Below, piece after piece: positions 14,161 to 43,375 of a stretch of DNA of 64,000 nt. Each line of letters starts with the position of its first letter. Within the stretch, counting starts at the first letter, position 1. The DNA is from Phormidesmis sp. (GTDB lineage Bacteria; Cyanobacteriota; Cyanobacteriia; Leptolyngbyales; Leptolyngbyaceae), in NCBI GenBank assembly GCA_965248535.1, contig CBDFJR010000005.1:2387867-2451866 (forward strand), in the 5' to 3' direction. The notes beneath the pieces were generated by a model. The model saw nothing but the letters and a program-made list of their open reading frames with translations. It was not told the origin of the DNA and ran no database searches. A program made the translations under genes and the position numbers.

Positions 14161-14221
14161 AAATCTTTGACCTAATTGTCTTGACGATCGACAAGAGTTC
14201 TTGAGACCACAAAGTGGTTCT

Positions 14222-16015
14222 TTAGAACACGAAGGTTGTGCGAATGGTGCCAATATACTCAGTGGCGTTGCTGCTGTTGTGTTCTGGGTTCAAGATCACG
14301 AGCAGACCCGGTGTGATCGAGATGTTGTCATTGAGGCGATAGCGATAAAAGCCCTCGACATGGAGAGAGGTATCGAGATCGCGACGACGCGCTTGGTTGA
14401 CGAGGGGGTTTCTGACTCCATAGTCGCTGCCCGACGTTTTAGGAGGCATTCCGACAACGATGCCTGCCAGGTTGCCTTCTTTTAAGAAATCAGGGAACGC
14501 CAAGGTCACGGCCCAGTTCCAGATGTTGGCAATGTCGCCTTTGTTGATAATCGGGTTAGCAGGGATGTTGCCTCCTGTCTTTAAGGCTTCGGCGCGGGTG
14601 TAGCCACCCCATGCCGAGATAATCATGCCAGGGTTGAGCCGGAAGCTTCCTTCTAGCCCAAACGCATTGGTTTTCGTCGGCGTGATGTTAACAGCGTTGT
14701 TAAAGGGGCTGTCAGCAAACGCGCTGCCAGTGCCGCCTGAGATGCCAACGCCGTTGCGGTAATAGCCGTTCACATAGGTGAAACCGAGACTCAGTGCAGG
14801 TGTGGGCTGAAACACCAGTTGACCTAGGGCAGCATAGTTGCCGTTAAACAAGCCGTTGCCGTCAACTGGGTTGCTAGCAATTGCAGTCGGCACCAGGTAA
14901 CCCAAAGACAGACTAAATTTACTGCCGAGGGTATATTCTGAACCGAACTTGTGGTTGAGAACCAATCCAGTACCCGTGGCGGCGCGGTAGATGGGGTTAA
15001 ATCGACCAAAGCGCGAAATCGAACCGTTGGCGCTAGATTCGGTCGGACTCAGCGTAGGCACGATGTCGTTATATTCCAGACCATCGTTGGTGCCCGTGCC
15101 GATATAGACGGTTGTCAAATCTCCCAGCGGGAAGCGATATTCTAACCGTGAGAGTTCGACGGAGTTGCCGTTATCGCCATCAAAGCCTAGCCGGGTCATG
15201 TTAGTGCCCGTGGTGGCAGTGTTAAACGCGACGGTGTTTCTGGCTTGTAGTCGAGTTCTCAAGCGGTCTTTGCCTGAGAAACTGGTGTCAAGGTTGAGTC
15301 GAACCCGATCGCTAAAGATCGTGTTTTCGCGCACACTGCGACCGTTAGGAAGAAACGTGTTGCGCTGCGCTTCTCTCTGAGCAGGCGTGAGGGCTGGGTT
15401 ATCGACTTGACGCTGTTGGTCAGAGGTGAGGGCCCGATCGTCCCCAATGGCACCACTGACAGCAAAGATAATCTCGCCGTTGAGCTTGGTCGTTGTTGAA
15501 AATTGCTGCTTTTCTAAAGTAGTGGTGCGCGCTTCGAGGGCATCTACTTGACCGCGCAGGGTTGCCAACTCAGCCGCAAATTCTTCTTGTAGCTTTTGCA
15601 GAGTCGCTAAGTCTTCTTTTTTGACCAAATCAGCCGTTGATGCCGCGATTAACTCGTTGACGCGATCGAGACACGCATTCAACCCGGCCGCAAACTCAAA
15701 GCGAGACAGGGCCCGATTGCCGCGATAGGTTTTATCGGGGTAGCCTGCAATGCAGCCATAGCGCTCGACTAAAGATTGTAGTGCCTGAAAAGCCCAGTCA
15801 GTGGGTCTGACATCTGAGAGTTGGGACACTGAGGTGACTTGACCCAAAATCACAGCAGGATTTGCGGGCAAAGTCTCGATCGAGGCAACTGAGGGGGCCT
15901 CTTGTTTCAAAGCGGGGTTAACTGTTGTCTGCGCTGAGGCACAGGCCGCAACTAATGCGGACGCACCCAAAAGCATTGGGGTAACTAGCAGTGATCTCCA
16001 AATCGTTAGAGACAT
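14222..16015 (-). CDS. SLH-domain cyanobacterial porin (SomA/OprB type)
   Basis: QVTSVSQLSDVRPTDWAFQALQSLVERYGC SLH domain, FSTTTKL, RTTFVF C-terminus. Confidence 0.92.
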   Translation of the reverse strand: MSLTIWRSLLVTPMLLGASALVAACASAQTTVNPALKQEAPSVASIETLPANPAVILGQVTSVSQLSDVRPTDWAFQALQSLVERYGCIAGYPDKTYRGNRALSRFEFAAGLNACLDRVNELIAASTADLVKKEDLATLQKLQEEFAAELATLRGQVDALEARTTTLEKQQFSTTTKLNGEIIFAVSGAIGDDRALTSDQQRQVDNPALTPAQREAQRNTFLPNGRSVRENTIFSDRVRLNLDTSFSGKDRLRTRLQARNTVAFNTATTGTNMTRLGFDGDNGNSVELSRLEYRFPLGDLTTVYIGTGTNDGLEYNDIVPTLSPTESSANGSISRFGRFNPIYRAATGTGLVLNHKFGSEYTLGSKFSLSLGYLVPTAIASNPVDGNGLFNGNYAALGQLVFQPTPALSLGFTYVNGYYRNGVGISGGTGSAFADSPFNNAVNITPTKTNAFGLEGSFRLNPGMIISAWGGYTRAEALKTGGNIPANPIINKGDIANIWNWAVTLAFPDFLKEGNLAGIVVGMPPKTSGSDYGVRNPLVNQARRRDLDTSLHVEGFYRYRLNDNISITPGLLVILNPEHNSSNATEYIGTIRTTFVF

Positions 16016-27449: not shown

Positions 27450-29946
27450 ATGCACGCTGCTGAAAACGAAACGTCTCCCGATAATCATCGTCTGCGATGT
27501 CCCGAATTGCTTGCCCCTGCGGGTCATTGGGATTGCGCCAAAGCCGCGATCGAGAACGGTGCTGATGCGATTTATTTTGGCTTAGAGCGATTTAACGCCC
27601 GAATGCGGGCGCAAAACTTCACTGAAGCTGATTTGCCGCAGTTAATGGAATTTTTGCATCGGCGCGGCGTGAAAGGCTATGTCACCCTCAACACGCTGAT
27701 CTTTCCAGCAGAGTTGGCGGAGGCAGAACATTATCTCCGCACAATTATTTCGGCGGGAGTGGATGCGGCGATCGTGCAAGATGTTGGCATTTGTCGGCTG
27801 ATTCGTCACTTATCGCCCGATTTTCCGATTCATGCCTCGACTCAGATGACGGTTACGAGTGCGGCCGGGGTGGAATTTGCTCAAGCGATCGGGTGTCAGT
27901 TAGTGGTACTGGCTCGTGAATGTTCGATTAAAGAAATTGACAAAATTCAGCAGCAGATTGCGGAGAGAAATATCTCACTGCCGCTAGAAGTGTTTGTGCA
28001 TGGGGCGCTGTGTGTCGCCTATTCAGGACAGTGTTTGACGAGTGAATCGCTGGGCGGACGCTCTGCCAATCGCGGCGAGTGCGCGCAAGCGTGTCGGATG
28101 CCTTACGAATTAATTTCAGACGGTGAAGTGATTGATTTAGGCCATCAAGATAATCGCAAATATCTGTTGAGTCCTCAAGATTTAGCGGGGTTAGACGTGT
28201 TGCCAGAACTCGTTAAAACCGGAGTCAGCAGCCTCAAGATCGAAGGGCGGCTAAAATCGCCAGAATATGTGGCAACTGTGACGCGAGTTTATCGAGAAGC
28301 CCTCGATCGCATCATGTCAGATTTAGAATCTCTCGATCCTGGAGAAGATCGGTATCGATTGGAGATGGCATTCTCGCGAGGGCTTCACACGGGCTGGTTT
28401 GAGGGCATCAACAATCAAGAATTAGTTCACGCTCGATTTGGCAAAAAGCGCGGCGTTTATCTGGGCGAAGTCACCCAGATCCGGAACGAGCAGATCACAG
28501 TGCGACTGCAAGCGCCGCTCAAGCCAGGAGACGGCGTAGTGTTTGATAGTGGGCATCCCGAAGCGTCAGAAGAAGGCGGACGGATTTATACGATCGAGCA
28601 TCACGGACAAGATGCAATTCTCGCATTTGGACGCGGCGCGCTGAATTTTCACCGCATTCATCTCGGCGATCGTGTATGGAAAACCAGCGACCCAGACCTC
28701 GATCGTCAAATCAGACAGACCTATGCAGGCGACACGCCCCAGTTTCAGCGGCCGATTGATCTTGAGATTCATGGCAATGTCGGACAGACTCTCGTGGTGA
28801 TTGCCCGCGATCGCATCGGTCATGTCGTGCAAGTTGAATCTGAGATGCCATTGGTAGAGGCACACAATAAACCATTGACGAGCGATCGCTTACGCGAACA
28901 ATTAGGGACGACTCGGCAACACTCCCTTTTGTCTAGGAGAGTTGACTAATCATCTGAATGGATCGGCAATGCTGCCTGTAAGCGAATTAAATCGCATTCG
29001 TCGAGAGTTTGTCACGCAGCTAGAAACGCTGCGGGCAATGCCAAAACGCTGGCAAATTAATTCAAATGCAACGCTTTTAGAATTGCTGCCTAACATTCCT
29101 TCGCGATCGGTGTCGGCTCCCAATCTCCTCGTCTTAGTTCGTAGTTTGGGTCAGCTTCGAGCCGCGTTAGAAACCGATATTCAGACGCTCTATTGCGAGT
29201 TTGAAGATCCGCGTGCCTATAAACAAGCGGTGCAGCTAGTAAGACAGCACGAAGGCAAAGCGATTTGGGTCGCGCCGCCTCGCATCACAAAACCGGGAGA
29301 GAAGTGGATCTTGCAGCAGGTACGAGACTCTCAAGCCGATGGCTATCTGGTACGAAATTATGATCAGCTTGAGGCGTTTCAGTCAGTGCGCTGTGTCGGA
29401 GATTTTTCACTCAACGTTGCCAACGCTTTGACCGCCGATTACTTAATTCAGACGTTTGGGTTAGAGCGAGTCACCGCGTCTTATGACCTAAATATTTCAC
29501 AACTGCAAGACTTATTAACCAGCGGTTCGCCCGATTGGTATGAGGTGACGATCCATCAACATATGCCGATGTTTCACATGGAGCATTGCGTGTTTTGCGC
29601 CTTTATGTCTGACGGAACCGACTACACCAACTGCGGGCGACCCTGCGAAGATCATGAGGTGAAGCTGCGCGATCGCGTTGGCACCGAGCATATTCTCACC
29701 GCCGATGCGGGTTGTCGCAACACGGTGTTTAACGGCAAAGCTCAAACGGGCGCAGAATATTTGCAAACGCTGGCGAAACTGGGTGTAAATCACTTTAGGA
29801 TTGAGTTTGTGAATGAATCTGATCAGCAAGTTAAACACACGATCGAGTGCTATCAAAAGCTCTTAAAAGGAGAAATCAACGGCTCTCAACTCTGGCGATC
29901 GTTAAACCTGCAAAATCAGCTAGGGGTCACCCGCGGCACTTTTTAA
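27450..29946 (+). pseudogene. U32 peptidase family/DUF3656 (RlhA-like) gene split by a +1 frameshift near 28905
   Basis: ELLAPAG, HASTQ, CVAYSGQC, NRGECAQACR and LKIEGR motifs; removing one G at 28905-28907 gives QLGRLGNTPFCLGELTNHL and fuses both ORFs. Confidence 0.8.
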
Positions 29947-32967: not shown

Positions 32968-34824
32968 TTAGGCGCGATAGGGCTGGGCTTGAAGTTCAAA
33001 TAACTCGGCATAGAGACCCTGATGCCGCATTAGATCTGGGTGGGTGCCGCTTTCTACAATGCGTCCTTGATCCATCACATAAATGCGATCGGCCATTTTC
33101 ACCGTCGATAAGCGGTGGCTGATCAAAATCGCCGATCGCCCTTTAATCAACTGTCTAAAATTCTCATAGACCACCTCCTCAGCTTTGGCATCTAGGGCAC
33201 TGGTCGGTTCGTCGAGCACGACCAGTTGCGAATTGCGTAGAAACGCCCGCGCCAGCGCAATTTTTTGCCACTGTCCTCCACTCAATTCTTCCCCTTGGTG
33301 AAACGATCGCCCTAGCCAAGTCTCGTAGCCATCGGGCAGGGTTTGAATCACCGCATCGGCACCAGAGGCTTTAGCGGCTAACTGAACCTGCGGATCTTGA
33401 GGTGGCAACTCCACATTTCCTAGCCAAATATTGGTGTGGGCAGTGAGGTCATAGCGCACATAGTCCTGAAAGACGACACTGACCTGGCGACGCAAATCGG
33501 CGATTTGGAAGTTGCGGACATCGATTCCATCCCAGGTAATCTGTCCGGCGGTCGGTTCATATAAGCGGCAGAGTAGCTTGATCAGCGTCGTTTTGCCGGA
33601 GCCGTTTTCGCCGACGAGTGCCACCACTTCTCCGGGGCGAATGACTAAATCAATGCCTTGCACTGCCTGCCGTTGGCTGTGAGCATATTGAAAATCAACT
33701 TGATGAAACACAATACCCTGCTGCATGGGTTGCGGCACGGGCCGGGGCTGAACCGGATCAGGAAGCTTGGTTTCTAGATCGAAAAACTCATTGAGGTTGC
33801 ACAGATACAGATAGTTTTCGTGCATACTAGACAGCCCGCCGAGTAAGGCTTGCAGCGAGCCTTTACCGCGCTGTAGAGCTTGATGATACAACACGAGATC
33901 ACCCAGTTTTAGCGCGCCATTGACTGCTTGTAGAATAATGAAGCTGTAGAGTGCCAGCATCAATATCGCCCCGATCGCTTGGACACCGATGTAGACTAAA
34001 GCCTGTTGCCGATCGATCGCGAGTTTTTCTCGATGCAACTGTTTTTGCAATCGCAAGACCCATTCGGTAAAGTAGGGCCCCAAATTGAATAAGCGCAGTT
34101 CTTTGGCAAAGCCTGCCGAGGCGACAATGCTTCCTAAATAGCTGATTTGTCGGTGCATTTGGGTGCTGCGGCGCTCCCATTCATAGCCGATTTTGCCGTA
34201 TTTAAACTGGGCAAGGAGGGTGGGCAGCGTGGTTAAAACCAAGGCCGGTAGCGTCACCCAGTGAATCGTGACGAGTAGCCCGATCATGGTGATCAGCGAT
34301 AGCCCATTTTGCACCAAGGCGGTGGCGGTATACATCACATGGGTGGGGCGTTGCACCTCCCGCTGGGCGCGTTGCAGAATATTGTAGTATTCTGTGTTTT
34401 CGTAGCATTCAATATCGACGGCGATCGCTTTGGCATAGAAGCGTGCCTGCATATATTCGGTGAGTTTGAGTCCTTGCGCTTGGGTCACCCAGTTGTCGAA
34501 GGAAGAGCACAAGAGGTTTAACAGTAAGCACCCCCCCGCCAGTCCGAAGAGTATGGCCAGTTGGGGCATGATGGTGGCCCGATGTGCTGCATCCATGTCT
34601 GTTTTGATGCTGATGGTGAGCACATCGACGACCCATTTGTTCACATAGAGGCTGGCGAGGGAGAGTCCGCTTTGAAGCAGCAGTAAACTCACATGGATGA
34701 CTGTCCATTTAGGACTGCTCTGCCAGACCAATTTTAGGGCAGACAGCGATCGTATGCTGTGGCTTATTTGGCGAGAGAATTGTTTTAGACTACGAATAAA
34801 CCAACGATTCACGGGCTTAATCAC
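32968..34824 (-). CDS. ABC exporter (TMD+NBD), probable peptide exporter
   Basis: GENGSGKTT, LSGGQWQKIALAR and DEPTS motifs; AKELRLF; N-terminal TMD; no C39 peptidase domain seen. Confidence 0.9.
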   Translation of the reverse strand: MIKPVNRWFIRSLKQFSRQISHSIRSLSALKLVWQSSPKWTVIHVSLLLLQSGLSLASLYVNKWVVDVLTISIKTDMDAAHRATIMPQLAILFGLAGGCLLLNLLCSSFDNWVTQAQGLKLTEYMQARFYAKAIAVDIECYENTEYYNILQRAQREVQRPTHVMYTATALVQNGLSLITMIGLLVTIHWVTLPALVLTTLPTLLAQFKYGKIGYEWERRSTQMHRQISYLGSIVASAGFAKELRLFNLGPYFTEWVLRLQKQLHREKLAIDRQQALVYIGVQAIGAILMLALYSFIILQAVNGALKLGDLVLYHQALQRGKGSLQALLGGLSSMHENYLYLCNLNEFFDLETKLPDPVQPRPVPQPMQQGIVFHQVDFQYAHSQRQAVQGIDLVIRPGEVVALVGENGSGKTTLIKLLCRLYEPTAGQITWDGIDVRNFQIADLRRQVSVVFQDYVRYDLTAHTNIWLGNVELPPQDPQVQLAAKASGADAVIQTLPDGYETWLGRSFHQGEELSGGQWQKIALARAFLRNSQLVVLDEPTSALDAKAEEVVYENFRQLIKGRSAILISHRLSTVKMADRIYVMDQGRIVESGTHPDLMRHQGLYAELFELQAQPYRA

Positions 34825-34874
34825 TCACAATATCTGACGAGACTAAAAGAATGGTCGCAATAGACGCTCGATGT

Positions 34875-35849
34875 TCACGACGCAGAGAGTGACAAAGCAG
34901 AGTCTATGGGGAATAGTGTGGAAGCATGGGGCGGTTCGAGCAGCGATCGCAACCCTTGATCGAGCGACCAGCGGGGGCGAAAATTCAACGTCGATCGCGC
35001 TAGAACAATGTTGGCTTGGGAGTGTTGAATATCGCCAGGGCGACGGGCTGCAAATCGAATCGGACTCATTTCACCGGGATGGTTAGCGCGCAGGCATTCC
35101 AGCAATTGCAGCAGTGAAATCGCTACACCCGTGCCAATATTGCAAACTAAAGAGGTGCCAGCAGCGCGATCGATTTCCAACGCTTGCACAAATGCTTGGG
35201 CCACATCTTTTACGTAGATAAAATCGCGGGTTTGTGAGCCATCGCCGTAAATCGTAATCGGTAACCCCTGACTCAGCGCCTGAGAAAATCGCGAAATCAC
35301 CCCAGAATAAGCCGAATTTGGCGCTTGACGCGGGCCAAAAACATTAAAGAGCCGCAGACCGACAAAGGCAAATCCGAGCCGATCGGCATACAAGCTGGCG
35401 TAGTGCTCACTGGTTAGTTTTTGTAAGCCATAGGGTGAAATCGGTGTGGTTAAATTGTCTTCTGCGATCAGCCTTGTGGATAAGTTTCCATAAACTGCCG
35501 CTGAACTTGTAAACACCAGCTTAGGAATCGACAGCGCTTGACACAAGCTGATCACCGCGATCGTGGCTGATAGATTATTGTGATGGGTGTGAATCGGATC
35601 TGACCAAGATTCACCGACAGATGGCGTTGCAGCTAGATGGGCTATGCCATCGACTGGACTCAAAAAATCTTCTGGTTGGCAATGCTGAATCTCTTTTTGG
35701 AGCACCGACAATGAGGGATGCCGGGGCAAATGCTTTAGCGTTCCTGTGCGTAAATTGTCCACAACGGTGACACAGTGCCCTTGGGCTAATAGCGCTTCGG
35801 TTAAGTGGGAACCAATAAATCCGGCTCCTCCAGTGACGATGATGTGCAT
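34875..35849 (-). CDS. NAD-dependent NDP-sugar epimerase/dehydratase
   Basis: TGGAGFIGSHL, YGLQK (YxxxK), FNVFGPRQ and GDGSQTRDF motifs. Confidence 0.92.
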   Translation of the reverse strand: MHIIVTGGAGFIGSHLTEALLAQGHCVTVVDNLRTGTLKHLPRHPSLSVLQKEIQHCQPEDFLSPVDGIAHLAATPSVGESWSDPIHTHHNNLSATIAVISLCQALSIPKLVFTSSAAVYGNLSTRLIAEDNLTTPISPYGLQKLTSEHYASLYADRLGFAFVGLRLFNVFGPRQAPNSAYSGVISRFSQALSQGLPITIYGDGSQTRDFIYVKDVAQAFVQALEIDRAAGTSLVCNIGTGVAISLLQLLECLRANHPGEMSPIRFAARRPGDIQHSQANIVLARSTLNFRPRWSLDQGLRSLLEPPHASTLFPIDSALSLSAS

Positions 35850-35867
35850 TTGGCTCTGTTCCAGTGC

Positions 35868-36926
35868 TTAAACGGTGAGGGATAGCAGCGAGTTTTGGGA
35901 AGATAGGATCTGATGACTGAGAGATGCCAAGTCATCGGTGATGAGTGTGCAAAGCTGATCTAATTGCTGTAGATCATCAGGACGAGAGAGCAACCGGATC
36001 GGGATAGTTTGCGCGATCGCTGCCAATTCCTGTAGCTCCTGCTGCTGCTGGAGGGGCATGAGAATATCTCGCCCGTAGCTGTGCACTAAAAGATGCTGGA
36101 GGGAGGCGATCGCCGAGAGAGGTTGAACGATCGCGCTGTCACGAGAGGCTTCTCGCGGTTGCAGCACATAAATCGCCGCTAAAGGTAGAGAATGCTCGAC
36201 AAACCGTTGAGGTAAGCGATCGTGCTCTGGCTGCAACTCAAAAAAGCATTTATCTAAGCGGCTAAACACCCGCGTGAGCGGTGCAATCGGAACCGTCAGC
36301 GCCTGGAGTGAAGGCTGCCACAGTCGCAGTGCTGGGTAGCCCGGTTGCACCCAAATCTGATCCTTGATGCTGTGCAGAGCGGCAATATCATCGGTCAGGG
36401 CCGCATATCCGCGCATCGCTAAAGCGGCGGCGGTGGTCGATTTGCCTGCACCAGATGCTCCGATTAGCGCGATCGCTTGTCCCTGAATTTTGACGACGCT
36501 GGCGTGTAAACAGAGTGTTCCTCGCAGCCGCAGCACATGCCCCAGCACGCCACCGAGCAGCATTGAAACGGCATCCTGAAACAGGTGTTCTGCTGACCAA
36601 AAGCCCCAAACTCGATCGCCTGTCGGATGAATCACAAATTCCAGAACGTCATCGTGCTCGACCGATCGCAGCCGCCAATAGGTGCCCTCTGCGGTCTCGG
36701 TTTGCCAGAGACAAAAGCCTGCCTGCTGTTCATCTGCTGTTGTTACTTGCCAAAACCGATGCTCTAGCAGGGGATGATCTAGCGTGGGTGCGCCAACAAA
36801 TTCTACTGTCACCGTTGACGTTTTAGACGGCAGTGAATGGGTGGGTGTTAAACCGGGGAGGAATCGATTGGAGACTAGGCTCAAACCATAGACGGTATAG
36901 CAAGAATTGTCCTCTAGATTCTGCAT
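35868..36926 (-). CDS. HPr-kinase-like serine kinase (lasso-cluster type)
   Basis: LHAS, GASGAGKST P-loop and LTDD motifs; likely start ATG 36926. Confidence 0.85.
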   Translation of the reverse strand: MQNLEDNSCYTVYGLSLVSNRFLPGLTPTHSLPSKTSTVTVEFVGAPTLDHPLLEHRFWQVTTADEQQAGFCLWQTETAEGTYWRLRSVEHDDVLEFVIHPTGDRVWGFWSAEHLFQDAVSMLLGGVLGHVLRLRGTLCLHASVVKIQGQAIALIGASGAGKSTTAAALAMRGYAALTDDIAALHSIKDQIWVQPGYPALRLWQPSLQALTVPIAPLTRVFSRLDKCFFELQPEHDRLPQRFVEHSLPLAAIYVLQPREASRDSAIVQPLSAIASLQHLLVHSYGRDILMPLQQQQELQELAAIAQTIPIRLLSRPDDLQQLDQLCTLITDDLASLSHQILSSQNSLLSLTV

Positions 36927-37050
36927 TGGCAATTCAACAGTAGATAAACATAAAATCGGCAGTTTGCTGCAACATAGGTGAGCGATCGTTTCAGGCGATC
37001 GCTCACCTATTCTCAAACTTGGCTCAATCTATAATCAAGCTCGACTAAGC

Positions 37051-37227
37051 TCACGTCGTCGAGGGGAAGGTGGTATTTGTGGTACTGTTAGTAGTCCCGA
37101 CCGTAGGACTCATACCTGTCGTCATGGGACTACCACTGCCCCCGCCGCTTTGGGTCAGTCCAGCGATCGTGCCATGGGCCTCGAACACTGGTGATTCGTA
37201 GTCTTTTTGATGATCATTCATAGTCAT
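37051..37227 (-). CDS. RiPP precursor peptide with lasso-type leader (58 aa)
   Basis: MTMNDHQKDYESPVFEAHGTIAGLTQ|SGGGSGSPMTTGMSPTVGTTNSTTNTTFPSTT; YxxP..G..T(-2) leader; AAGGAG RBS; not in the ORF track. Confidence 0.88.
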   Translation of the reverse strand: MTMNDHQKDYESPVFEAHGTIAGLTQSGGGSGSPMTTGMSPTVGTTNSTTNTTFPSTT

Positions 37228-37339
37228 GAACTCCTTTGTTGGGTAAATAGTGTGAGCAGATGCACCCTGAAACTTTTAGCTGAGAACAAATGAAGCGGTT
37301 CTTTCCCATAACATTAGGATGTGGGTCAAGTGACTGATC

Positions 37340-38542
37340 TCAGGCGGTTAAACTCAATGATTTATCGGCATGGCCGCGCTGTTTGATTTGACAAAGCCGA
37401 TCGCAGGCGTTGAGAAAAAGCTGCTTAAATCGCGATTCATCAAACTGATCGACCATCAGTTGGCGGGCTTGTGCGAGATGGTCGCGTCGCGCTTCGGGTG
37501 GTTGGTTTACCACTTGCACGATCGCTGCTGCCAATGCTTCTGGATTCTCCGGCGGCGCTAAGGTGCAGACCTCCGGCACAAACGTACCATGATAGGCTTT
37601 TAAATCGACACTAATCACCTCACACTCACAGGCGATCGCTTCAATCAACGTCGAGGGAAAGGCATCGGTGTAGGGATAGCTGATCACCACATCCGACAGG
37701 TTATAAATAGTTGGCATCCAGAGATGGGGAAAGTAAGGTAAAAATCGGAGGCGATCGGTGAGTTGGTATTCCTCGGCTCGCGCTTCAATTCGATTTCTCA
37801 TCTCTTGTTGTTCTTTCTGAGGGGCGCGCCCCATCACCAAAAAAACCATTGCTGTAGGTTTTGTTAGCTGGGGATAGGCTAACTGATAGGCATGAAAGAT
37901 ATCATCATGTTTGTAGAGCGCTGCCCAACCACGTGGCGACATAATCACCGTAGTCTCTTCGGGGAGCCGCAACACATCGCGTTTCCACTGTGCCACATTG
38001 CGGGTAGTGCCCCGGCAAAATAGCTGGGTTTTGGTGCCGATCGGAATCAGTTCAACCCGACCATCAGCAGGCATCAAGGCTTGCGCTGGCTCCAGTAGCT
38101 GCGGGGTTTCCACAATCAAGGTATCTGTATTTGCAAGCACAAATTCTGCTAACTCGCTCTGTTCCCTATTGATCTGATTTAGGAGCATATAATTCAGAAA
38201 CCCCCAAGCGGATACAACGAGCGGTCGCACCCCCGCTAAGACACAACTGCGAGCGTGCCAATTGATCGCATTGACATGCACCACATCGGGCTGGAACTCG
38301 TCGAACAATGCTCGAATGCGCGGTGCCATGTCGATCGCCATCTGATGGTCATCAAAGGTGCCACCGGGATTATCATCGTTTTCTAAGTGCCACTGACTCG
38401 GAACATAGCGGTAATTTGCGGGGGGATTGCCTTCATAAAAATCTGCATCGCCCAGCAGACAGACGTGATGCCCAGCCTCAATGAGCCAACGCAGGGGACG
38501 CTCTGCCGCAGTGCCCCCACAGGAAACAACTAGAATTCGCAT
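37340..38542 (-). CDS. GT4-like (GT-B) glycosyltransferase
   Basis: PDVVHV, SPRG and DAFPSTLIEAIAC motifs. Confidence 0.85.
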   Translation of the reverse strand: MRILVVSCGGTAAERPLRWLIEAGHHVCLLGDADFYEGNPPANYRYVPSQWHLENDDNPGGTFDDHQMAIDMAPRIRALFDEFQPDVVHVNAINWHARSCVLAGVRPLVVSAWGFLNYMLLNQINREQSELAEFVLANTDTLIVETPQLLEPAQALMPADGRVELIPIGTKTQLFCRGTTRNVAQWKRDVLRLPEETTVIMSPRGWAALYKHDDIFHAYQLAYPQLTKPTAMVFLVMGRAPQKEQQEMRNRIEARAEEYQLTDRLRFLPYFPHLWMPTIYNLSDVVISYPYTDAFPSTLIEAIACECEVISVDLKAYHGTFVPEVCTLAPPENPEALAAAIVQVVNQPPEARRDHLAQARQLMVDQFDESRFKQLFLNACDRLCQIKQRGHADKSLSLTA

Positions 38543-38594
38543 GGGATTAGTCCTGACTATAAATCTCACTAGCGCGGATAGAGTTCACGCCTGC

Positions 38595-38918
38595 TTAAAT
38601 ACTGTTGTCTTCAGTGCTGTGGAGTTCGACAACGCCCGCTTCTAGCCATTGGGTGACTAAGCTCATCAAGTCTGCCTGTAGGCGCTCTGGCTCTACTGCA
38701 TACTCTTCTAACAATGTTTTGTAGGCAGATTCGATCGAGGCTGCTTGAGTGAGCGCAGAGAGCATCTGGGTCGCGATCGTGTTTTGGCTAAAGTAAACTT
38801 CAGTGGTCATATTCAACAATGCCGATTCGCCCGACATATCTTGTATCAAAACCTGGGGAGACAAGACTATTTTTTGAGCGGATGAGATTTGCGGTGCCAG
38901 GGAATCAGTACTCAACAT
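38595..38918 (-). CDS. PqqD-family RiPP recognition element (lasso B1)
   Basis: GESALLN..YFSQN..EYAVEPERLQADL..LEAGVV pattern. Confidence 0.88.
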   Translation of the reverse strand: MLSTDSLAPQISSAQKIVLSPQVLIQDMSGESALLNMTTEVYFSQNTIATQMLSALTQAASIESAYKTLLEEYAVEPERLQADLMSLVTQWLEAGVVELHSTEDNSI

Positions 38919-39270
38919 AATGTAGTCAACGAAGTCGATAGTGATCTATATCTAAGCTCTTCAGGGAGTTTAACAGTCATCCGACAGTGAGGTTCTAAGG
39001 TTTACGGAAATTAGTTATTTCTCTATGAAGTTTAAAGTCTTATCTTCTGTTTGAGCGATTTCTGGTCTTGTGAGGTATACATGAACACTGCGGTTCTGTT
39101 GCACAAACATGGCTACTTAGGTTACGCCGCAGGGATAATCGGGGTTTCCTAAGAGCTTATATGAACGTATCTAAAACATTTGGCCCTTGCTTTTTAAAGA
39201 TAGACAATGTGATTGTGACAGATGATCGAGTTGTCTCAGGCAATGGAGGTGAAAATTTGTGAGTGTTCAG

Positions 39271-39753
39271 TTACGAGAGTGATTTAGAAAAGGCGCTAAA
39301 CTGTTGATGGACATCAGGGCGATCGTTCAACACTAGCTCCTCATACTCGATCCAGGCGTGGGCACAAAATGTTCCGTGTTCTCGCTGCACCCCAATTCGC
39401 ACAGTTGTTTTGACCCCCTGACAGCGGAGCAAAAACCAGAGCACCAGCGATCGTTTTAAGCAGTTACCCCAAATGCTCGATCGGGCGGCTAGATTCACGA
39501 TTTGAGCGATGTGCTGCAACTGAGATAACTCGGTTGGCGGTCTAATAGGGCATCGTGCCGTCAGCCAATCGAGCCAGCATTGCGTCTGCTGCAACCCTCT
39601 GAGAGATAAACAGCACGACACGATCGGCAACAACAAAAAGGCTTGCAAAAAGAGCGTGCGATCGCATGGAGGAAGCGCCATCCAGAGGTGTCCTTTACGA
39701 AAAAGTCGCTGCATGGGAATCATGACAAAGAGGTTGCTGAAACGATCAAACAT
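39271..39753 (-). CDS. Lasso B2 transglutaminase-like leader peptidase
   Basis: NCLKRSLVLW..IGV..AHAWIE..LND with Cys/His catalytic residues. Confidence 0.92.
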   Translation of the reverse strand: MFDRFSNLFVMIPMQRLFRKGHLWMALPPCDRTLFLQAFLLLPIVSCCLSLRGLQQTQCWLDWLTARCPIRPPTELSQLQHIAQIVNLAARSSIWGNCLKRSLVLWFLLRCQGVKTTVRIGVQREHGTFCAHAWIEYEELVLNDRPDVHQQFSAFSKSLS

Positions 39754-39860
39754 TGACTTGTTTATTGTACAATATTTTGCGTAAATATCCGGATCGATTC
39801 AGCGATCTGAAGTAATACAGATCACTACCTTAACAGTTGCTCTTTCAGGGTTTCAATTTG

Positions 39861-41072
39861 ATGGATCTTTCTTCTTTGACTCAAGGCTGTAGTGCTGAAG
39901 CTAATTTCTTGCTTGCCTGTGTCCGGCTCTATTGCAGACCCTCAGGCGCAGCAGAGATGAGATTGAATCTCGATGCTGTGAATTGGTCAAAACTGATCGA
40001 AATCGCCCACTTCAACAGCGTCATCCCGATTTTGCACAACAGTTTGAACGCGATCGCATCTCCCCATGTTCCCCCCGATATACTCACTGATCTTTCTGAA
40101 GCAACTCGTGCAAACAGCCACCTCAATCTGCTGCGTGCTAAAGAACTGCTCTGCCTGGTAGCGTGCCTAAAAAAACAAGGTATTGATGTCATTCCTTTTA
40201 AAGGACTGGTCTTAGCAGAAGTTGCTCATGGCAATTTAGCGATGCGGCAATTTGGCGATTTGGATTTGTTAGTTCGTGATCAAGATTTTTGGCAAGCAAA
40301 GGCTGCTTTAATGGCTCAGGGATATTGCACCGAAACAACCGCGATCGAAGAAGCGATCGGCTTTCGGCGCTACTGTCAAATTTCTTTGTCTAACTCAGCC
40401 CGATCGAGCAGTTTAGATCTGCACTGGGGCATTCCACCCCGGCGATTTTGGCATCGCGATCGCACCCCCACTCTTTGGCAAAATTTGCAGACCCGATCGC
40501 TAGCAGGACAGACCATTCAAACCTTTTCGATCGAGGTGATGTTAGTCATCCAAGCTATTAATGCGGTCAAAGAACCCCAGCGGCGGCCGGCTCTAAAACA
40601 GGTTTGTGATTTAGCAAAACTGATTCACGCTTACCCAACCTTAGATTGGGAGCGAGTCTGGGAGATAGCAGGTGAACTCCGGGTTCAGACACTGTTGCTG
40701 ATTAGTCTCAGTCTGGTACATCAACTCCTACAAGTGTCTCTTCCTAAAGAGATTCAAGCTGAAATTGCCAAAAATAAACGCATAGAAGCGATCGCCCGCC
40801 GAGTCAATCAACAAGTTGTTGCCAAAATCGATACGCCATCTGAGAGTTGTGACCGATGGTGGTCAGAATATTGGTATCAGCTTAAAACCCTCGATCGAGG
40901 CTGGCATGGGGGAGTGATGATCTTACAAGAGTTGGGCATCAGGCTGATCGAGATTGGCAGGCGGATGACTCCTAATGAGCACGATTTACAGATGGTATCT
41001 CTGCCCGCTTCTCTGCATTTTGTCTACTACTTTTTGCGCGTTTTGAGAGTGGCGAGTAAATATCTCTCTTAG
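39861..41072 (+). CDS. Nucleotidyltransferase family protein (NTP_transf_5 type)
   Basis: PFKG..R.FGDLDLLV..LDLHW pattern, as found in lasso clusters. Confidence 0.85.
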   Translation: MDLSSLTQGCSAEANFLLACVRLYCRPSGAAEMRLNLDAVNWSKLIEIAHFNSVIPILHNSLNAIASPHVPPDILTDLSEATRANSHLNLLRAKELLCLVACLKKQGIDVIPFKGLVLAEVAHGNLAMRQFGDLDLLVRDQDFWQAKAALMAQGYCTETTAIEEAIGFRRYCQISLSNSARSSSLDLHWGIPPRRFWHRDRTPTLWQNLQTRSLAGQTIQTFSIEVMLVIQAINAVKEPQRRPALKQVCDLAKLIHAYPTLDWERVWEIAGELRVQTLLLISLSLVHQLLQVSLPKEIQAEIAKNKRIEAIARRVNQQVVAKIDTPSESCDRWWSEYWYQLKTLDRGWHGGVMILQELGIRLIEIGRRMTPNEHDLQMVSLPASLHFVYYFLRVLRVASKYLS

Positions 41073-41249: not shown

Positions 41250-42569
41250 ATGACTGTCTCAAAACCCGCTTCAAATTCCGTTGGTGACCTCTCGCTGGCT
41301 GCGTTGGCGCAAAAAACTCAGACGGCTGCTCGTCATTTAGCCACGCAACCCACCGAGGTGAAAAATCGGGCGATCGCTGCCATCGCTGATGCTCTAGAAG
41401 CCAACAGTGCCGAAATTCTCGCTGCCAATGCCGCAGACTGTGAAGCAGCCAAACTAGCGGGAATCGCCCCCGCTCTCTATGCGCGACTGAAGCTTGACGA
41501 AGCGAAATTGAAGGGAGCGATCGCTGGGGTGCGTGATGTGGGCAAGTTGGCAGACCCGATCGGGGTCATTCAACTCGATCGCGAATTGGATGAAGGGCTG
41601 ATTCTCAAGCGAGTCACTTGCCCGTTAGGGGTGCTAGGCGTGATTTTTGAGGCGCGACCCGATGCCGTGATGCAGATTTCGAGTTTGGCGATTAAGTCAG
41701 GAAACGGCGTGATTCTCAAAGGTGGCAAAGAGGCGATTCAGTCTTGCGAAGCTTTGGTGACAGCGATTCATCAAGGGTTAGCGCAAACAGAAATTGATCC
41801 ATCAGTGGTGCAACTTTTAACTACGCGAGAAGAAACGCTAGAGTTATTAAAACTCGATCACTTTGTGGATTTAATTATTCCGAGAGGATCAAATTCATTT
41901 GTGCAATTTGTGCAAAATAATACGAAAATTCCGGTGTTAGGACACGCTGAAGGAATTTGTCATCTATATGTCGATCGCACTGCTGACATTCAGAAAGCAA
42001 TCAAAATCACAATAGATTCTAAAACTCAATATCCGGCTGCTTGCAACGCGATCGAGACTCTGATTGTGCATCAAGCGATCGCGTCAGAGTTTTTGCTAGA
42101 AGCGGTCTCTGCACTGCAAGCTAAGAATGTGGAATTACGGGGAGATGAACGCGCTCGTGAAATTCTCAATATCGCTGCTGTGACAGACTTGGATTGGGTG
42201 ACTGAATACAGCGACTTGATTTTAGCGATTAAAATTGTGGATTCTTTAGAAGGCGCGATCGCCCATATCAATACCTATGGGTCACGACATACAGAAGCGA
42301 TCGTGACTGAAGATTCAACATCGGCTCAAACCTTTCTAGCTCAAGTCGATGCGGCGGGGGTCTACCACAACTGTTCGACTCGTTTTGCAGATGGGTTTCG
42401 CTATGGCTTTGGCGCAGAAGTGGGCATCAGCACCCAAAAAATGCCCCCTCGCGGCCCCGTCGGCTTAGAAGGACTCGTCACCTACAAATATCAGCTAGTG
42501 GGCAACGGGCATATTGCTGCAACCTATACGGGAAGTCATGCTAAACCCTTCACTCATCGGGATTTATAG
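41250..42569 (+). CDS. proA: Gamma-glutamyl phosphate reductase
   Basis: [27 protein letters not shown] and RGPVGL motifs. Confidence 0.95.
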
Positions 42570-42577
42570 GTCGCTAA

Positions 42578-43375
42578 ATGTTTGATAACATCTGCAAATT
42601 TCTTGCCGAAACCTTCTCGGCTGATTTCGCCACTTGGCTGCTGGGCGAACCTATTGAGCTAACTGAACTCAGCCCGTCAGAACTCTCACTCGAACCGATC
42701 CGCGCCGACGCGCTAATTTTGCTGCAATCTGACGAAGTGGTTTTGCATTTAGAGTTTCAGTCGCAGCCTAAAGCTGATATCCCGTTTCGGATGGTAGATT
42801 ATCGGCTGAGAGTCCATCGTCGCTTTCCCAAAAAGCAGATGCGCCAAGCCGTGATTTATCTACAGTTCACTAAGTCTGATCTCGTGCAGCAAAGCGCGTT
42901 TACCTTGGAAAAAACTCGCCATGAGTTTGAGGTGATCCGACTCTGGGAGCAGCCAACGAGTGCCTTTCTGCAATCTCCAGGCTTGCTTCCTTTTGCAGTT
43001 TTAAGTCAGGCAAGCAATCGGACTCAAACGCTCCGGCATGTAGCTCAAATCATTGATCAAATGCCTGACCCACGGGCACAAAGTAATGTTTTGGCATCGA
43101 CCTTTGTTCTGGCTGGTTTAGTATTGGAATCAGAGGTCGTTCAGCAAGTGTTGCGGAGAGACATTATGCAAGAGTCAGTCACTTATCAGCTTATTAAGTC
43201 AGAGGGTCGGGAAGAGGGTCGGGAAGAGGGTCGGGAAGAGGCGAGACAAGAGACTTTGCGACAGATTGTTGCGAATCTGTCGAGAGAAGGAATGTCTTCT
43301 GATGCGATCGCTCGAATTACGGGCTTGACGATCGAGCAACTTCAGCAGATTCAAACGGCGATCGACCCATCATAA
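42578..43375 (+). CDS. Rpn/PD-(D/E)XK nuclease-family protein
   Basis: IRADALI..LHLEFQ, MQESVTYQ and EGREEGREE tail. Confidence 0.8.
   Translation: MFDNICKFLAETFSADFATWLLGEPIELTELSPSELSLEPIRADALILLQSDEVVLHLEFQSQPKADIPFRMVDYRLRVHRRFPKKQMRQAVIYLQFTKSDLVQQSAFTLEKTRHEFEVIRLWEQPTSAFLQSPGLLPFAVLSQASNRTQTLRHVAQIIDQMPDPRAQSNVLASTFVLAGLVLESEVVQQVLRRDIMQESVTYQLIKSEGREEGREEGREEARQETLRQIVANLSREGMSSDAIARITGLTIEQLQQIQTAIDPS

Follow-up and report, generated by a model that had tools for sequence, protein, structure and literature searches.

What is made by a gene cluster that carries the leader recognition and leader cleavage genes of lasso peptide biosynthesis, when the core of its precursor offers no acidic residue on which a ring could be closed? 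The question is raised by a short open reading frame (ORF) on the minus strand of the window, which is the whole 64-kb stretch of cyanobacterial DNA that was analysed here. An earlier note on this DNA had singled out the ORF as a lasso-like precursor with a core rich in Ser and Thr. We have examined its reading frame, the genes around it and its relatives in other cyanobacteria.

The precursor reading frame

37051-37227, minus strand: precursor peptide gene; leader, residues 1-26; core, residues 27-58; translation MTMNDHQKDYESPVFEAHGTIAGLTQSGGGSGSPMTTGMSPTVGTTNSTTNTTFPSTT

The ORF is predicted by a gene caller, and its leader matches the pattern Y..P.[LF]...G.....T with Thr25 at position -2. 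This pattern has a single match in the six-frame translation of the 64-kb window, and mononucleotide shuffles of the window gave a mean of 0.05 matches, with at least one match in 10 of 200. Taken by itself the motif is only mildly unusual (p ~0.05); it is context and conservation, not the motif, that lift the ORF far above chance. When the profile of the precursor family was searched against the window, it matched this ORF alone (E 6e-23, with the runner-up at E 1.8). The lasso-type leader with Thr at -2 that the earlier note had described is confirmed, and a B1-type RiPP recognition element (RRE) and a B2-type peptidase are found in the same operon. The core is 32 residues long and contains 17 Ser/Thr, five TT pairs and no Asp or Glu, so that our recount agrees with the acid-free, TT-repeating core reported before. 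An AAGGAG ribosome binding site is also present as described, but its spacing speaks against the 58-residue peptide: its end lies 3 nt from the first ATG and 9 nt from the second (37221), which makes the second ATG and a 56-aa product likelier, and the entry for this precursor in the protein collection is the 56-aa form. No site resembling a sigma-70 promoter was picked up when the minus strand upstream of the precursor was scanned for promoters.

The frame itself had been placed under a caveat, namely that one added base would shift it and put Asp at core positions 10-11. We reproduced the shifted reading, HDDRYESYGRDY-stop, which is open for 12 codons. Were an assembly indel to mask the true frame, the core would be 20 aa long and end in the HDDRYESYGRDY reading. 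Split genes elsewhere, an Asn-synthase homologue on contig C2 and a pair of overlapping U32 peptidase ORFs, hint at indels. The frame was checked on assembled contigs of public sequencing runs, and those of runs X1, X2 and X3, which come from two studies and span the site, hold zero indels in the ORF. The X1 contig is identical to the window and may be its source sample; X2 carries the same organism label and belongs to the same study but is another sample; X3 has another organism label and study, with coverage of 37110-37435. A further run, X4 (share of words 0.18), had no contig over the stretch. Homologues moreover align in the present frame through the core, including its G-S-G and T-T motifs, and even the shifted frame has its Asp at 10-11, not at 7-9. 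On the strength of the contigs and the homologues we reject the caveat and give a masking indel next to no weight.

Over 581 aligned bases, X2 differs from the window solely at 37089, 37101 and 37107. All three differences are nonsynonymous (N47H, V43F and P41T, residues worked out by hand) and all fall within the tail of the precursor core, which looks like diversifying variation in a precursor core.

Two split genes deserve a separate description. The overlapping plus-strand ORFs 27450-28949 and 28942-29946 both match Peptidase_U32 and parts of DUF3656, the domain within which the first stops and the second starts. They are either a single long U32 peptidase gene with a frameshift or a natural pair. 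On contig C2 of the same genome (G000:C2:944908-945952; L004, L005), an Asn-synthase homologue is spread over two adjacent frames of 464 and 148 aa, which suggests a frameshift or an assembly indel. This homologue has no lasso B genes nearby, since the sole B1 and B2 of the genome are in the window.

The gene cluster and its missing cyclase

The precursor belongs to a nine-gene cluster at 32968-41072. Along the minus strand, from upstream to downstream, the order is B2, B1, GT4, precursor, kinase, epimerase and ABC exporter, with the PF14907 gene divergent.

39837-41072, plus strand (divergent): PF14907 nucleotidyltransferase of the PsmN/LppN type; Pfam NTP_transf_5, 178 bits over the full model
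39271-39753, minus strand: B2, lasso-type transglutaminase-fold cysteine peptidase; Pfam Transglut_core3, 76 bits
38595-38918, minus strand: B1, PqqD-like RiPP recognition element; Pfam PqqD, 40.5 bits, above cut-off
37340-38569, minus strand: GT4-family (GT-B) glycosyltransferase; Pfam Glycos_transf_1 and Glyco_trans_4 families
36974-37010, minus strand: hairpin with a perfect 15-bp stem and a 7-nt loop, made of GCGATCGC-type palindromes
35868-36926, minus strand: HprK-like kinase; Pfam Hpr_kinase_C, 29.9 bits, below cut-off; NCBIfam HprK_rel_A, weak
34875-35849, minus strand: GalE-like NAD-dependent sugar epimerase/dehydratase; Pfam Epimerase, 188 bits
32968-34824, minus strand: MsbA/HepA-like ABC exporter with transmembrane domain and ATPase

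The B2 assignment is supported by NCBIfam lasso_biosyn_B2 (80.4 bits against a cut-off of 33) and by invariant Cys, His and Asp columns in the B2 alignment, which we take to be the catalytic triad. B1 reaches 36-37 bits with the NCBIfam lasso PqqD chaperone models, below their cut-offs. Each is unique: in a genome that is 99.76% complete, the sole Transglut_core3 match is the cluster B2 and the sole PqqD match is the cluster B1. A complex of B1 with the precursor, predicted from a 10-row B1 alignment and a 17-row precursor alignment, scored 0.56 against 0.01 for the best control; runs agree in at least 96% of contacts, and the pLDDT of the partner is at least 54. Of 157 solved complexes, 116 attain the mark set for this score, as do 2 of 215 mismatched pairs, and among those that pass, scores of 0.60 or less are found in just 18 of the 157 solved complexes and in both passing mismatches. 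This amounts to weak support, but the score may reflect likeness, because RRE-leader complexes have already been solved, and we leave it out of the evidence.

As for the remaining genes, the closest solved structure to the GT4 enzyme is 6kih (E 4e-18), and its best NCBIfam matches, all below cut-offs, are enzymes of the exopolysaccharide (EPS) type; a conserved Met10 suggests that its start is at 38542. The kinase has an intact P-loop (GASGAGKST), and its start is more probably ATG 36926, favoured by the orthologue alignment, than TTG 37016 of the ORF listing. The best NCBIfam match of the epimerase is galE (188.6 bits, below cut-off), and those of the exporter, again below cut-offs, are MsbA and HepA, the latter an exporter of heterocyst polysaccharide. 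In the exporter of the cluster no peptidase domain was found. Nor did any ORF of the cluster match a signal-peptidase family in Pfam or NCBIfam, B2 being there instead.

The hairpin sits in the 124-nt spacer between precursor and kinase. A 101-nt stretch around it has a minimum free energy of -40.4 kcal/mol (z -6.1), and 0 of 200 shuffles were equally stable. It has no U-tract and is absent from the output of a terminator scan, and is likely to act as an attenuator or mRNA stabiliser.

The cluster is bordered by ProA (41250-42569) on one side and by two-component genes on the other. Just past ProA lies a plus-strand gene for an Rpn-family recombination-promoting nuclease/putative transposase (42578-43375; TIGR01784, 118 bits). 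Neither ProA nor the Rpn-like gene is conserved beside orthologous clusters, and both were therefore left out of the cluster.

What the cluster does not appear to contain is a lasso cyclase. Among the 24 largest ORFs scanned across 20393-51514 there was no match to Asn_synthase (PF00733). The nearest PF00733 match of the genome is a weak one 1.37 Mb off on contig C5, and the rest are on contig C2. Between B2 and B1, the gap at 38919-39270 (352 nt) has no open frame and, by tblastn, no cyclase remnant. When the window and eight orthologous loci were searched by tblastn with seven lasso cyclases, no remnant was found; the search gave merely two 30-aa chance matches (E 0.66 and 0.92), outside the clusters. 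Likewise, no Asn-synthase gene was found in the 14-21 kb around each orthologous cluster, and the PF00733 matches of the three genomes with kinase orthologues (G365, G193 and G229) are all away from their clusters.

Relatives with and without a cyclase

Those three genomes, out of 400 other cyanobacterial genomes, hold kinase orthologues of near full length and 47-55% identity, so that a kinase orthologue (at least 47% identity) occurs in 4 of 401 genomes of the class, our own included. GT4 orthologues, 48-52% identical, are found in at least five named Nostocaceae records, in 2 of 61 genomes of the window's family (own included) and in 0 of 4 genomes of the same genus. The distribution of the cluster is patchy. 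Fifty-one other loci among the GT4 matches listed are generic GT4 genes of 21-28% identity, and an Anaerolineae locus (L074) was rejected as a relative, having two GT4 genes of 35-36% identity and none of the other cluster genes.

The orthologous loci have the order B1, GT4, one to three precursors, kinase, GT2, (epimerase), B2, ABC exporter, PF14907. All 8 loci that are long enough carry B2, and orthologues of the PF14907 gene are present in every locus extending to it. The epimerases are 64-68% and the ABC exporters 51-53% identical to those of the window. GT2 is found in 8/8 other loci and is lacking from the window cluster; some relatives carry a second GT4 besides it, and a Nostoc linckia cluster (L072:13389-15282) has two tandem GT2 genes where the others have one. 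Two Nostocaceae clusters retain no more than a remnant of the epimerase, 29-35 aa long (L059, 7959-8627; L071, ~14216-14320), for which reason the enzyme seems dispensable; in L059 this remnant is fused to the B2 reading frame, at its 5' end.

In 17 of 17 precursors from nine loci, the leader residues Y10, P13, H18, G19, I21, G23, L24 and T25 are invariant, as are G30, S31, G32, T36 and T37 of the core (core positions G4, S5, G6, T10 and T11); examples are MSNNNKQTYCSPQLVEHGTIAGLTHQVVGSGGISTTAAPTTAPTTSGPILPL (L057) and MSQSENAKKNYSEPELKAHGKISGLTQQVGGSGGFGTTTRPGPPITGLP (P0008). None of the 17, all from cyclase-less loci, has Asp or Glu within the first 12 core residues. The family had to be found by profile, since a search of the protein collection with the single sequence gave the window's own ORF alone; a profile search of the 5.8-billion-protein collection yielded 25 precursor clusters, none with a Pfam domain, and every named homologue is a 'hypothetical protein' of Nostoc or Desmonostoc. 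The tBLASTn search for orthologous precursors proposed in the earlier note did less well. Homologues do exist, as the profile shows, but across 61 related genomes the 58-aa query, which is too short for a strong tblastn result, gave nothing better than E 0.005 beyond its own genome, and one of its weak matches (L011, E 0.066) is the precursor of a cyclase-bearing cluster.

Within this family the window peptide is the most divergent member and has the longest tail. By our reading of the alignment its tail also appears to be the richest in Ser/Thr, those of its relatives being shorter and less Ser/Thr-rich. The C-terminal residue is Thr in the window and L, D, P, F, E or others in homologues. 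The cores of L057:10791-10949 and P0023, both of the G365 type, differ by one A-P-T-T unit (TTAAPTTAPTTSG against TTAAPTTSG), which suggests that the Thr-rich tail varies in repeat number. In one of the 25 clusters, P0006 from Desmonostoc, core position 9 is Asp instead of the Gly, Ser, Ala or Phe of the others; the same genome has a normal copy, P0012.

Could the product nevertheless be a true lasso peptide, its ring closed by a cyclase encoded elsewhere or by way of a non-canonical acceptor? The Asn-synthase homologues on contig C2 and the Asp9 of that one family member could be cited for this, but the window core is free of any Asp or Glu, no cyclase was found near any of the nine loci, and the B2 and PqqD genes of the genome are single and both located here, so that there is no second lasso system to lend a cyclase. 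We regard this reading as highly improbable. The claim of the earlier note that no macrolactam can form holds, given the zero acidic acceptors in the core, and is reinforced by the failure to find a cyclase gene in nine loci. Of the features of a lasso system, the YxxP leader with Thr at -2 is present, and so are B1 and B2. Two others that define the class were looked for and not found, a cyclase in the cluster and an Asp/Glu acceptor at core positions 7-9, and on this ground the product is not a lasso peptide.

Seven related kinase loci (L060-L066), whose kinases are 34-40% identical, provide the counterpart. All seven have an ORF of 570-633 aa that passes Pfam Asn_synthase, and their nine precursors, called by motif and position, have Asp at core positions 7-10 in 9/9 cases, as in MLNNESGTKKSYQSPKLTLYGDICELTQNSSVGSGLDNGCPTFTNRSIITGTTPPCPT with Asp9; six of the nine have it at 7-9 if cleavage is assumed to follow the residue after the conserved Thr. 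Judged by these called precursors, cyclase presence and core Asp co-vary, with Asp at core positions 7-10 in 9/9 precursors with a cyclase and no Asp or Glu among the first 12 core residues in any of the 17 without. The seven loci resemble the window cluster in their T-Q type junction and similar leaders, and several have B1, B2, the ABC exporter and PF14907; they differ from it in having the cyclase and the core Asp and in lacking the GT4 orthologue. One of them (L065:7061-9137) has three candidate precursors that all end in Ser, which fits a C-terminal phosphorylation site of the paeninodin type.

In a quick IQ-TREE analysis of 19 kinase rows, the nine cyclase-less rows stand on one side of a branch with an SH-aLRT support of 98. 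The root was set by midpoint only, and seven Nostocaceae rows are near-copies of one another. The tree is compatible with a single loss of the cyclase.

Loss of the cyclase might have left a decaying lasso cluster in which the ORF is a functionless relic. The missing cyclase itself, the patchy distribution, the epimerase fragments of two relatives and the nearby transposase-like Rpn gene are what one would expect of such decay. They are outweighed by the state of the other genes. In both of the cyanobacterial families represented, each of the seven core genes is intact wherever the locus extends to it, the catalytic columns of B2 and of the kinase are kept, and precursors have been duplicated (from one copy up to two or three per cluster) with leader and core motif invariant. 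Among 25 Nostocaceae pairs of kinase, ABC, GT4, B1 and PF14907 genes, 22 have dN/dS of 0.07-0.34; the remaining three were unusable, one kinase pair being saturated, which we take to be a technical fault, and dS not being computable for two PF14907 pairs. The Nostocaceae cluster genes are under purifying selection, and a relic is improbable.

A proposed linear decorated peptide

The reading that we consider likely is that the ORF encodes the precursor of a linear, lasso-derived RiPP that is processed by B1 and B2 and has no macrolactam, with phosphorylation and glycosylation as the modifications that its neighbouring genes would provide. The product of the cluster is probably a linear, decorated peptide belonging to a type so far unstudied. 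In the proposed pathway, B1 would bind the YxxP leader and the HprK-like kinase would phosphorylate a core Ser. The best candidate, chosen from conservation alone, is the invariant Ser5 of G-S-G; it is preferred, and a paeninodin-type site set aside, because a C-terminal Ser is not conserved. The PF14907 enzyme would put a hexose on the Ser phosphate in the manner of PsmN, and the GT4 enzyme, supplied by the GalE-like epimerase, would extend this glycan or O-glycosylate the invariant Thr10-Thr11, in the window copy perhaps also further Thr/Ser along the tail. B2 would cleave after Gln26, which leaves Thr at -2, and the ABC pump would export the product, the macrolactam step being absent.

There is published precedent for single steps. 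In Bacillota, LppK phosphorylates core Ser3 of linear polyphosphorylated peptides (LPPs), from which the leader is removed preferentially when they are phosphorylated (Popov et al., Nat Commun 2026, PMC13381572); PsmK phosphorylates Ser, and the hexose on that phosphate needs PsmN (PMC6993621). Several points count against our proposal: the characterised HprK-like kinases of lasso clusters target a C-terminal Ser, which is absent here, and neither the kinase nor B1 reaches the curated cut-off of the model nearest to it. The Asp9 of P0006 and the patchy distribution of the cluster also weigh against it. LppN, moreover, was inactive in the published heterologous system (PMC13381572). The earlier suggestion of a scaffold for O-modification at many sites gains from the adjoining kinase, GT4, sugar epimerase and PsmN-type nucleotidyltransferase, but 'multi-site' is a guess, as conservation in the family is confined to five positions of the core, and by our reading relatives have shorter tails with a lower share of Ser/Thr. 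Since the window cluster lacks GT2 and has an atypical tail, extrapolating to it from its relatives is uncertain.

On our best reading of what is published, the closest analogue is the LPP family. The LPP leader consensus, YxxPxVLxHQxIxFETxxS (PMC13381572), is like the window leader of the Tyr-type YxxP, and the Y, P, H, I and T positions are common to both. The window and its orthologous loci also have an LPP-like gene set, with a stand-alone RRE, an HprK-like kinase, PF14907, an MsbA-like exporter and no cyclase, and both products are predicted to be linear. The differences from the LPPs, as these are described in PMC13381572, are several. The LPP leader peptidase is a signal peptidase I of the archaeal type (LppS), whereas the window cluster has a lasso B2 cysteine peptidase. 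The window family has GT4, usually GT2, and the epimerase as fixed cluster members. Its cores are short and Gly/Ser/Thr/Pro-rich, a type unlike that of LPP cores. Finally, LPPs are restricted to Bacillota according to that paper, and the window family is cyanobacterial; when the available supplements of PMC13381572 were searched by word for cyanobacteria, the sole entry was one RRE labelled 'lasso'.

Two further systems share parts of the picture. Paeninodin and pseudomycoidin (PMC6993621) have, like the window, B1, B2, an HprK-like kinase, a PsmN-type transferase, an ABC exporter and [Y/W]xxP leader recognition, but they also have a macrolactam synthetase, an Asp acceptor and a phosphorylated C-terminal Ser, none of which the window has. 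The davasins (PMC11912497) have in common with our proposal a glycosyltransferase that decorates a lasso-pathway peptide; theirs, IgtG, iteratively modifies a Ser and acts on the mature cyclised lasso peptide. As RRE-Finder is reported (PMC7470986), about half of the proteins that match its lasso RRE model are without peptidase and cyclase and are viewed as possible false positives. Among full texts available without subscription, our searches turned up no account of a B1/B2 cluster without a cyclase in cyanobacteria.

The genes for sugars admit another use of the peptide, as primer or anchor for a long phosphoglycan, a proteoglycan-like conjugate that the MsbA/HepA-like pump would export for sheath or exopolysaccharide. 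The nearest models of the exporter (MsbA and HepA) and of GT4 (EPS-type enzymes) point this way, albeit all below cut-offs, as do the GT2 and sometimes second GT4 added in relatives and the co-location of LPPs with capsule loci reported in PMC13381572. The cluster is compact, though, with no polymerase, flippase or chain-length genes seen within it; its flanks are ProA and signalling genes; and a leader peptidase together with hypervariable tails is typical of secreted RiPPs. We therefore think a phosphoglycan anchor rather unlikely, and hold to a linear decorated peptide.

If this is correct, lasso leader recognition and cleavage by B1/B2 can persist after the class-defining reaction has been lost, and the B1/B2 machinery would then serve a linear phospho- or glycopeptide. 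We assume that genome-mining rules which demand a cyclase would probably miss such clusters. The family would add another way of arriving at 'linear analogues of phosphorylated lasso peptides', a second one that seems distinct from the Bacillota LPPs of 2026, although an unrooted kinase tree does not prove their independence. It would also be a compact system for the function of PF14907 enzymes (PsmN/LppN), which sit here with dedicated GT4/GT2 and sugar-epimerase genes, and its assets are the invariant G-S-G...T-T core, one to three precursors per cluster and carriers among culture-collection Nostoc. More tentatively, and with somewhat less than even confidence, we suggest that these clusters may form a separate cyanobacterial RiPP class, derived from lasso clusters by loss of the cyclase and arisen apart from the Bacillota LPPs. 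Its products would be mucin-like linear peptides processed by B1/B2, with a phosphodiester-linked glycan on an invariant Ser (assembled in turn by kinase, PsmN-type transferase and GT4/GT2) and O-glycosylated Thr clusters. If true, this would be a bacterial, ribosomally templated phosphoglycopeptide, and no member would be more heavily decorated than the window copy, in which 17 of 32 residues are Ser/Thr.
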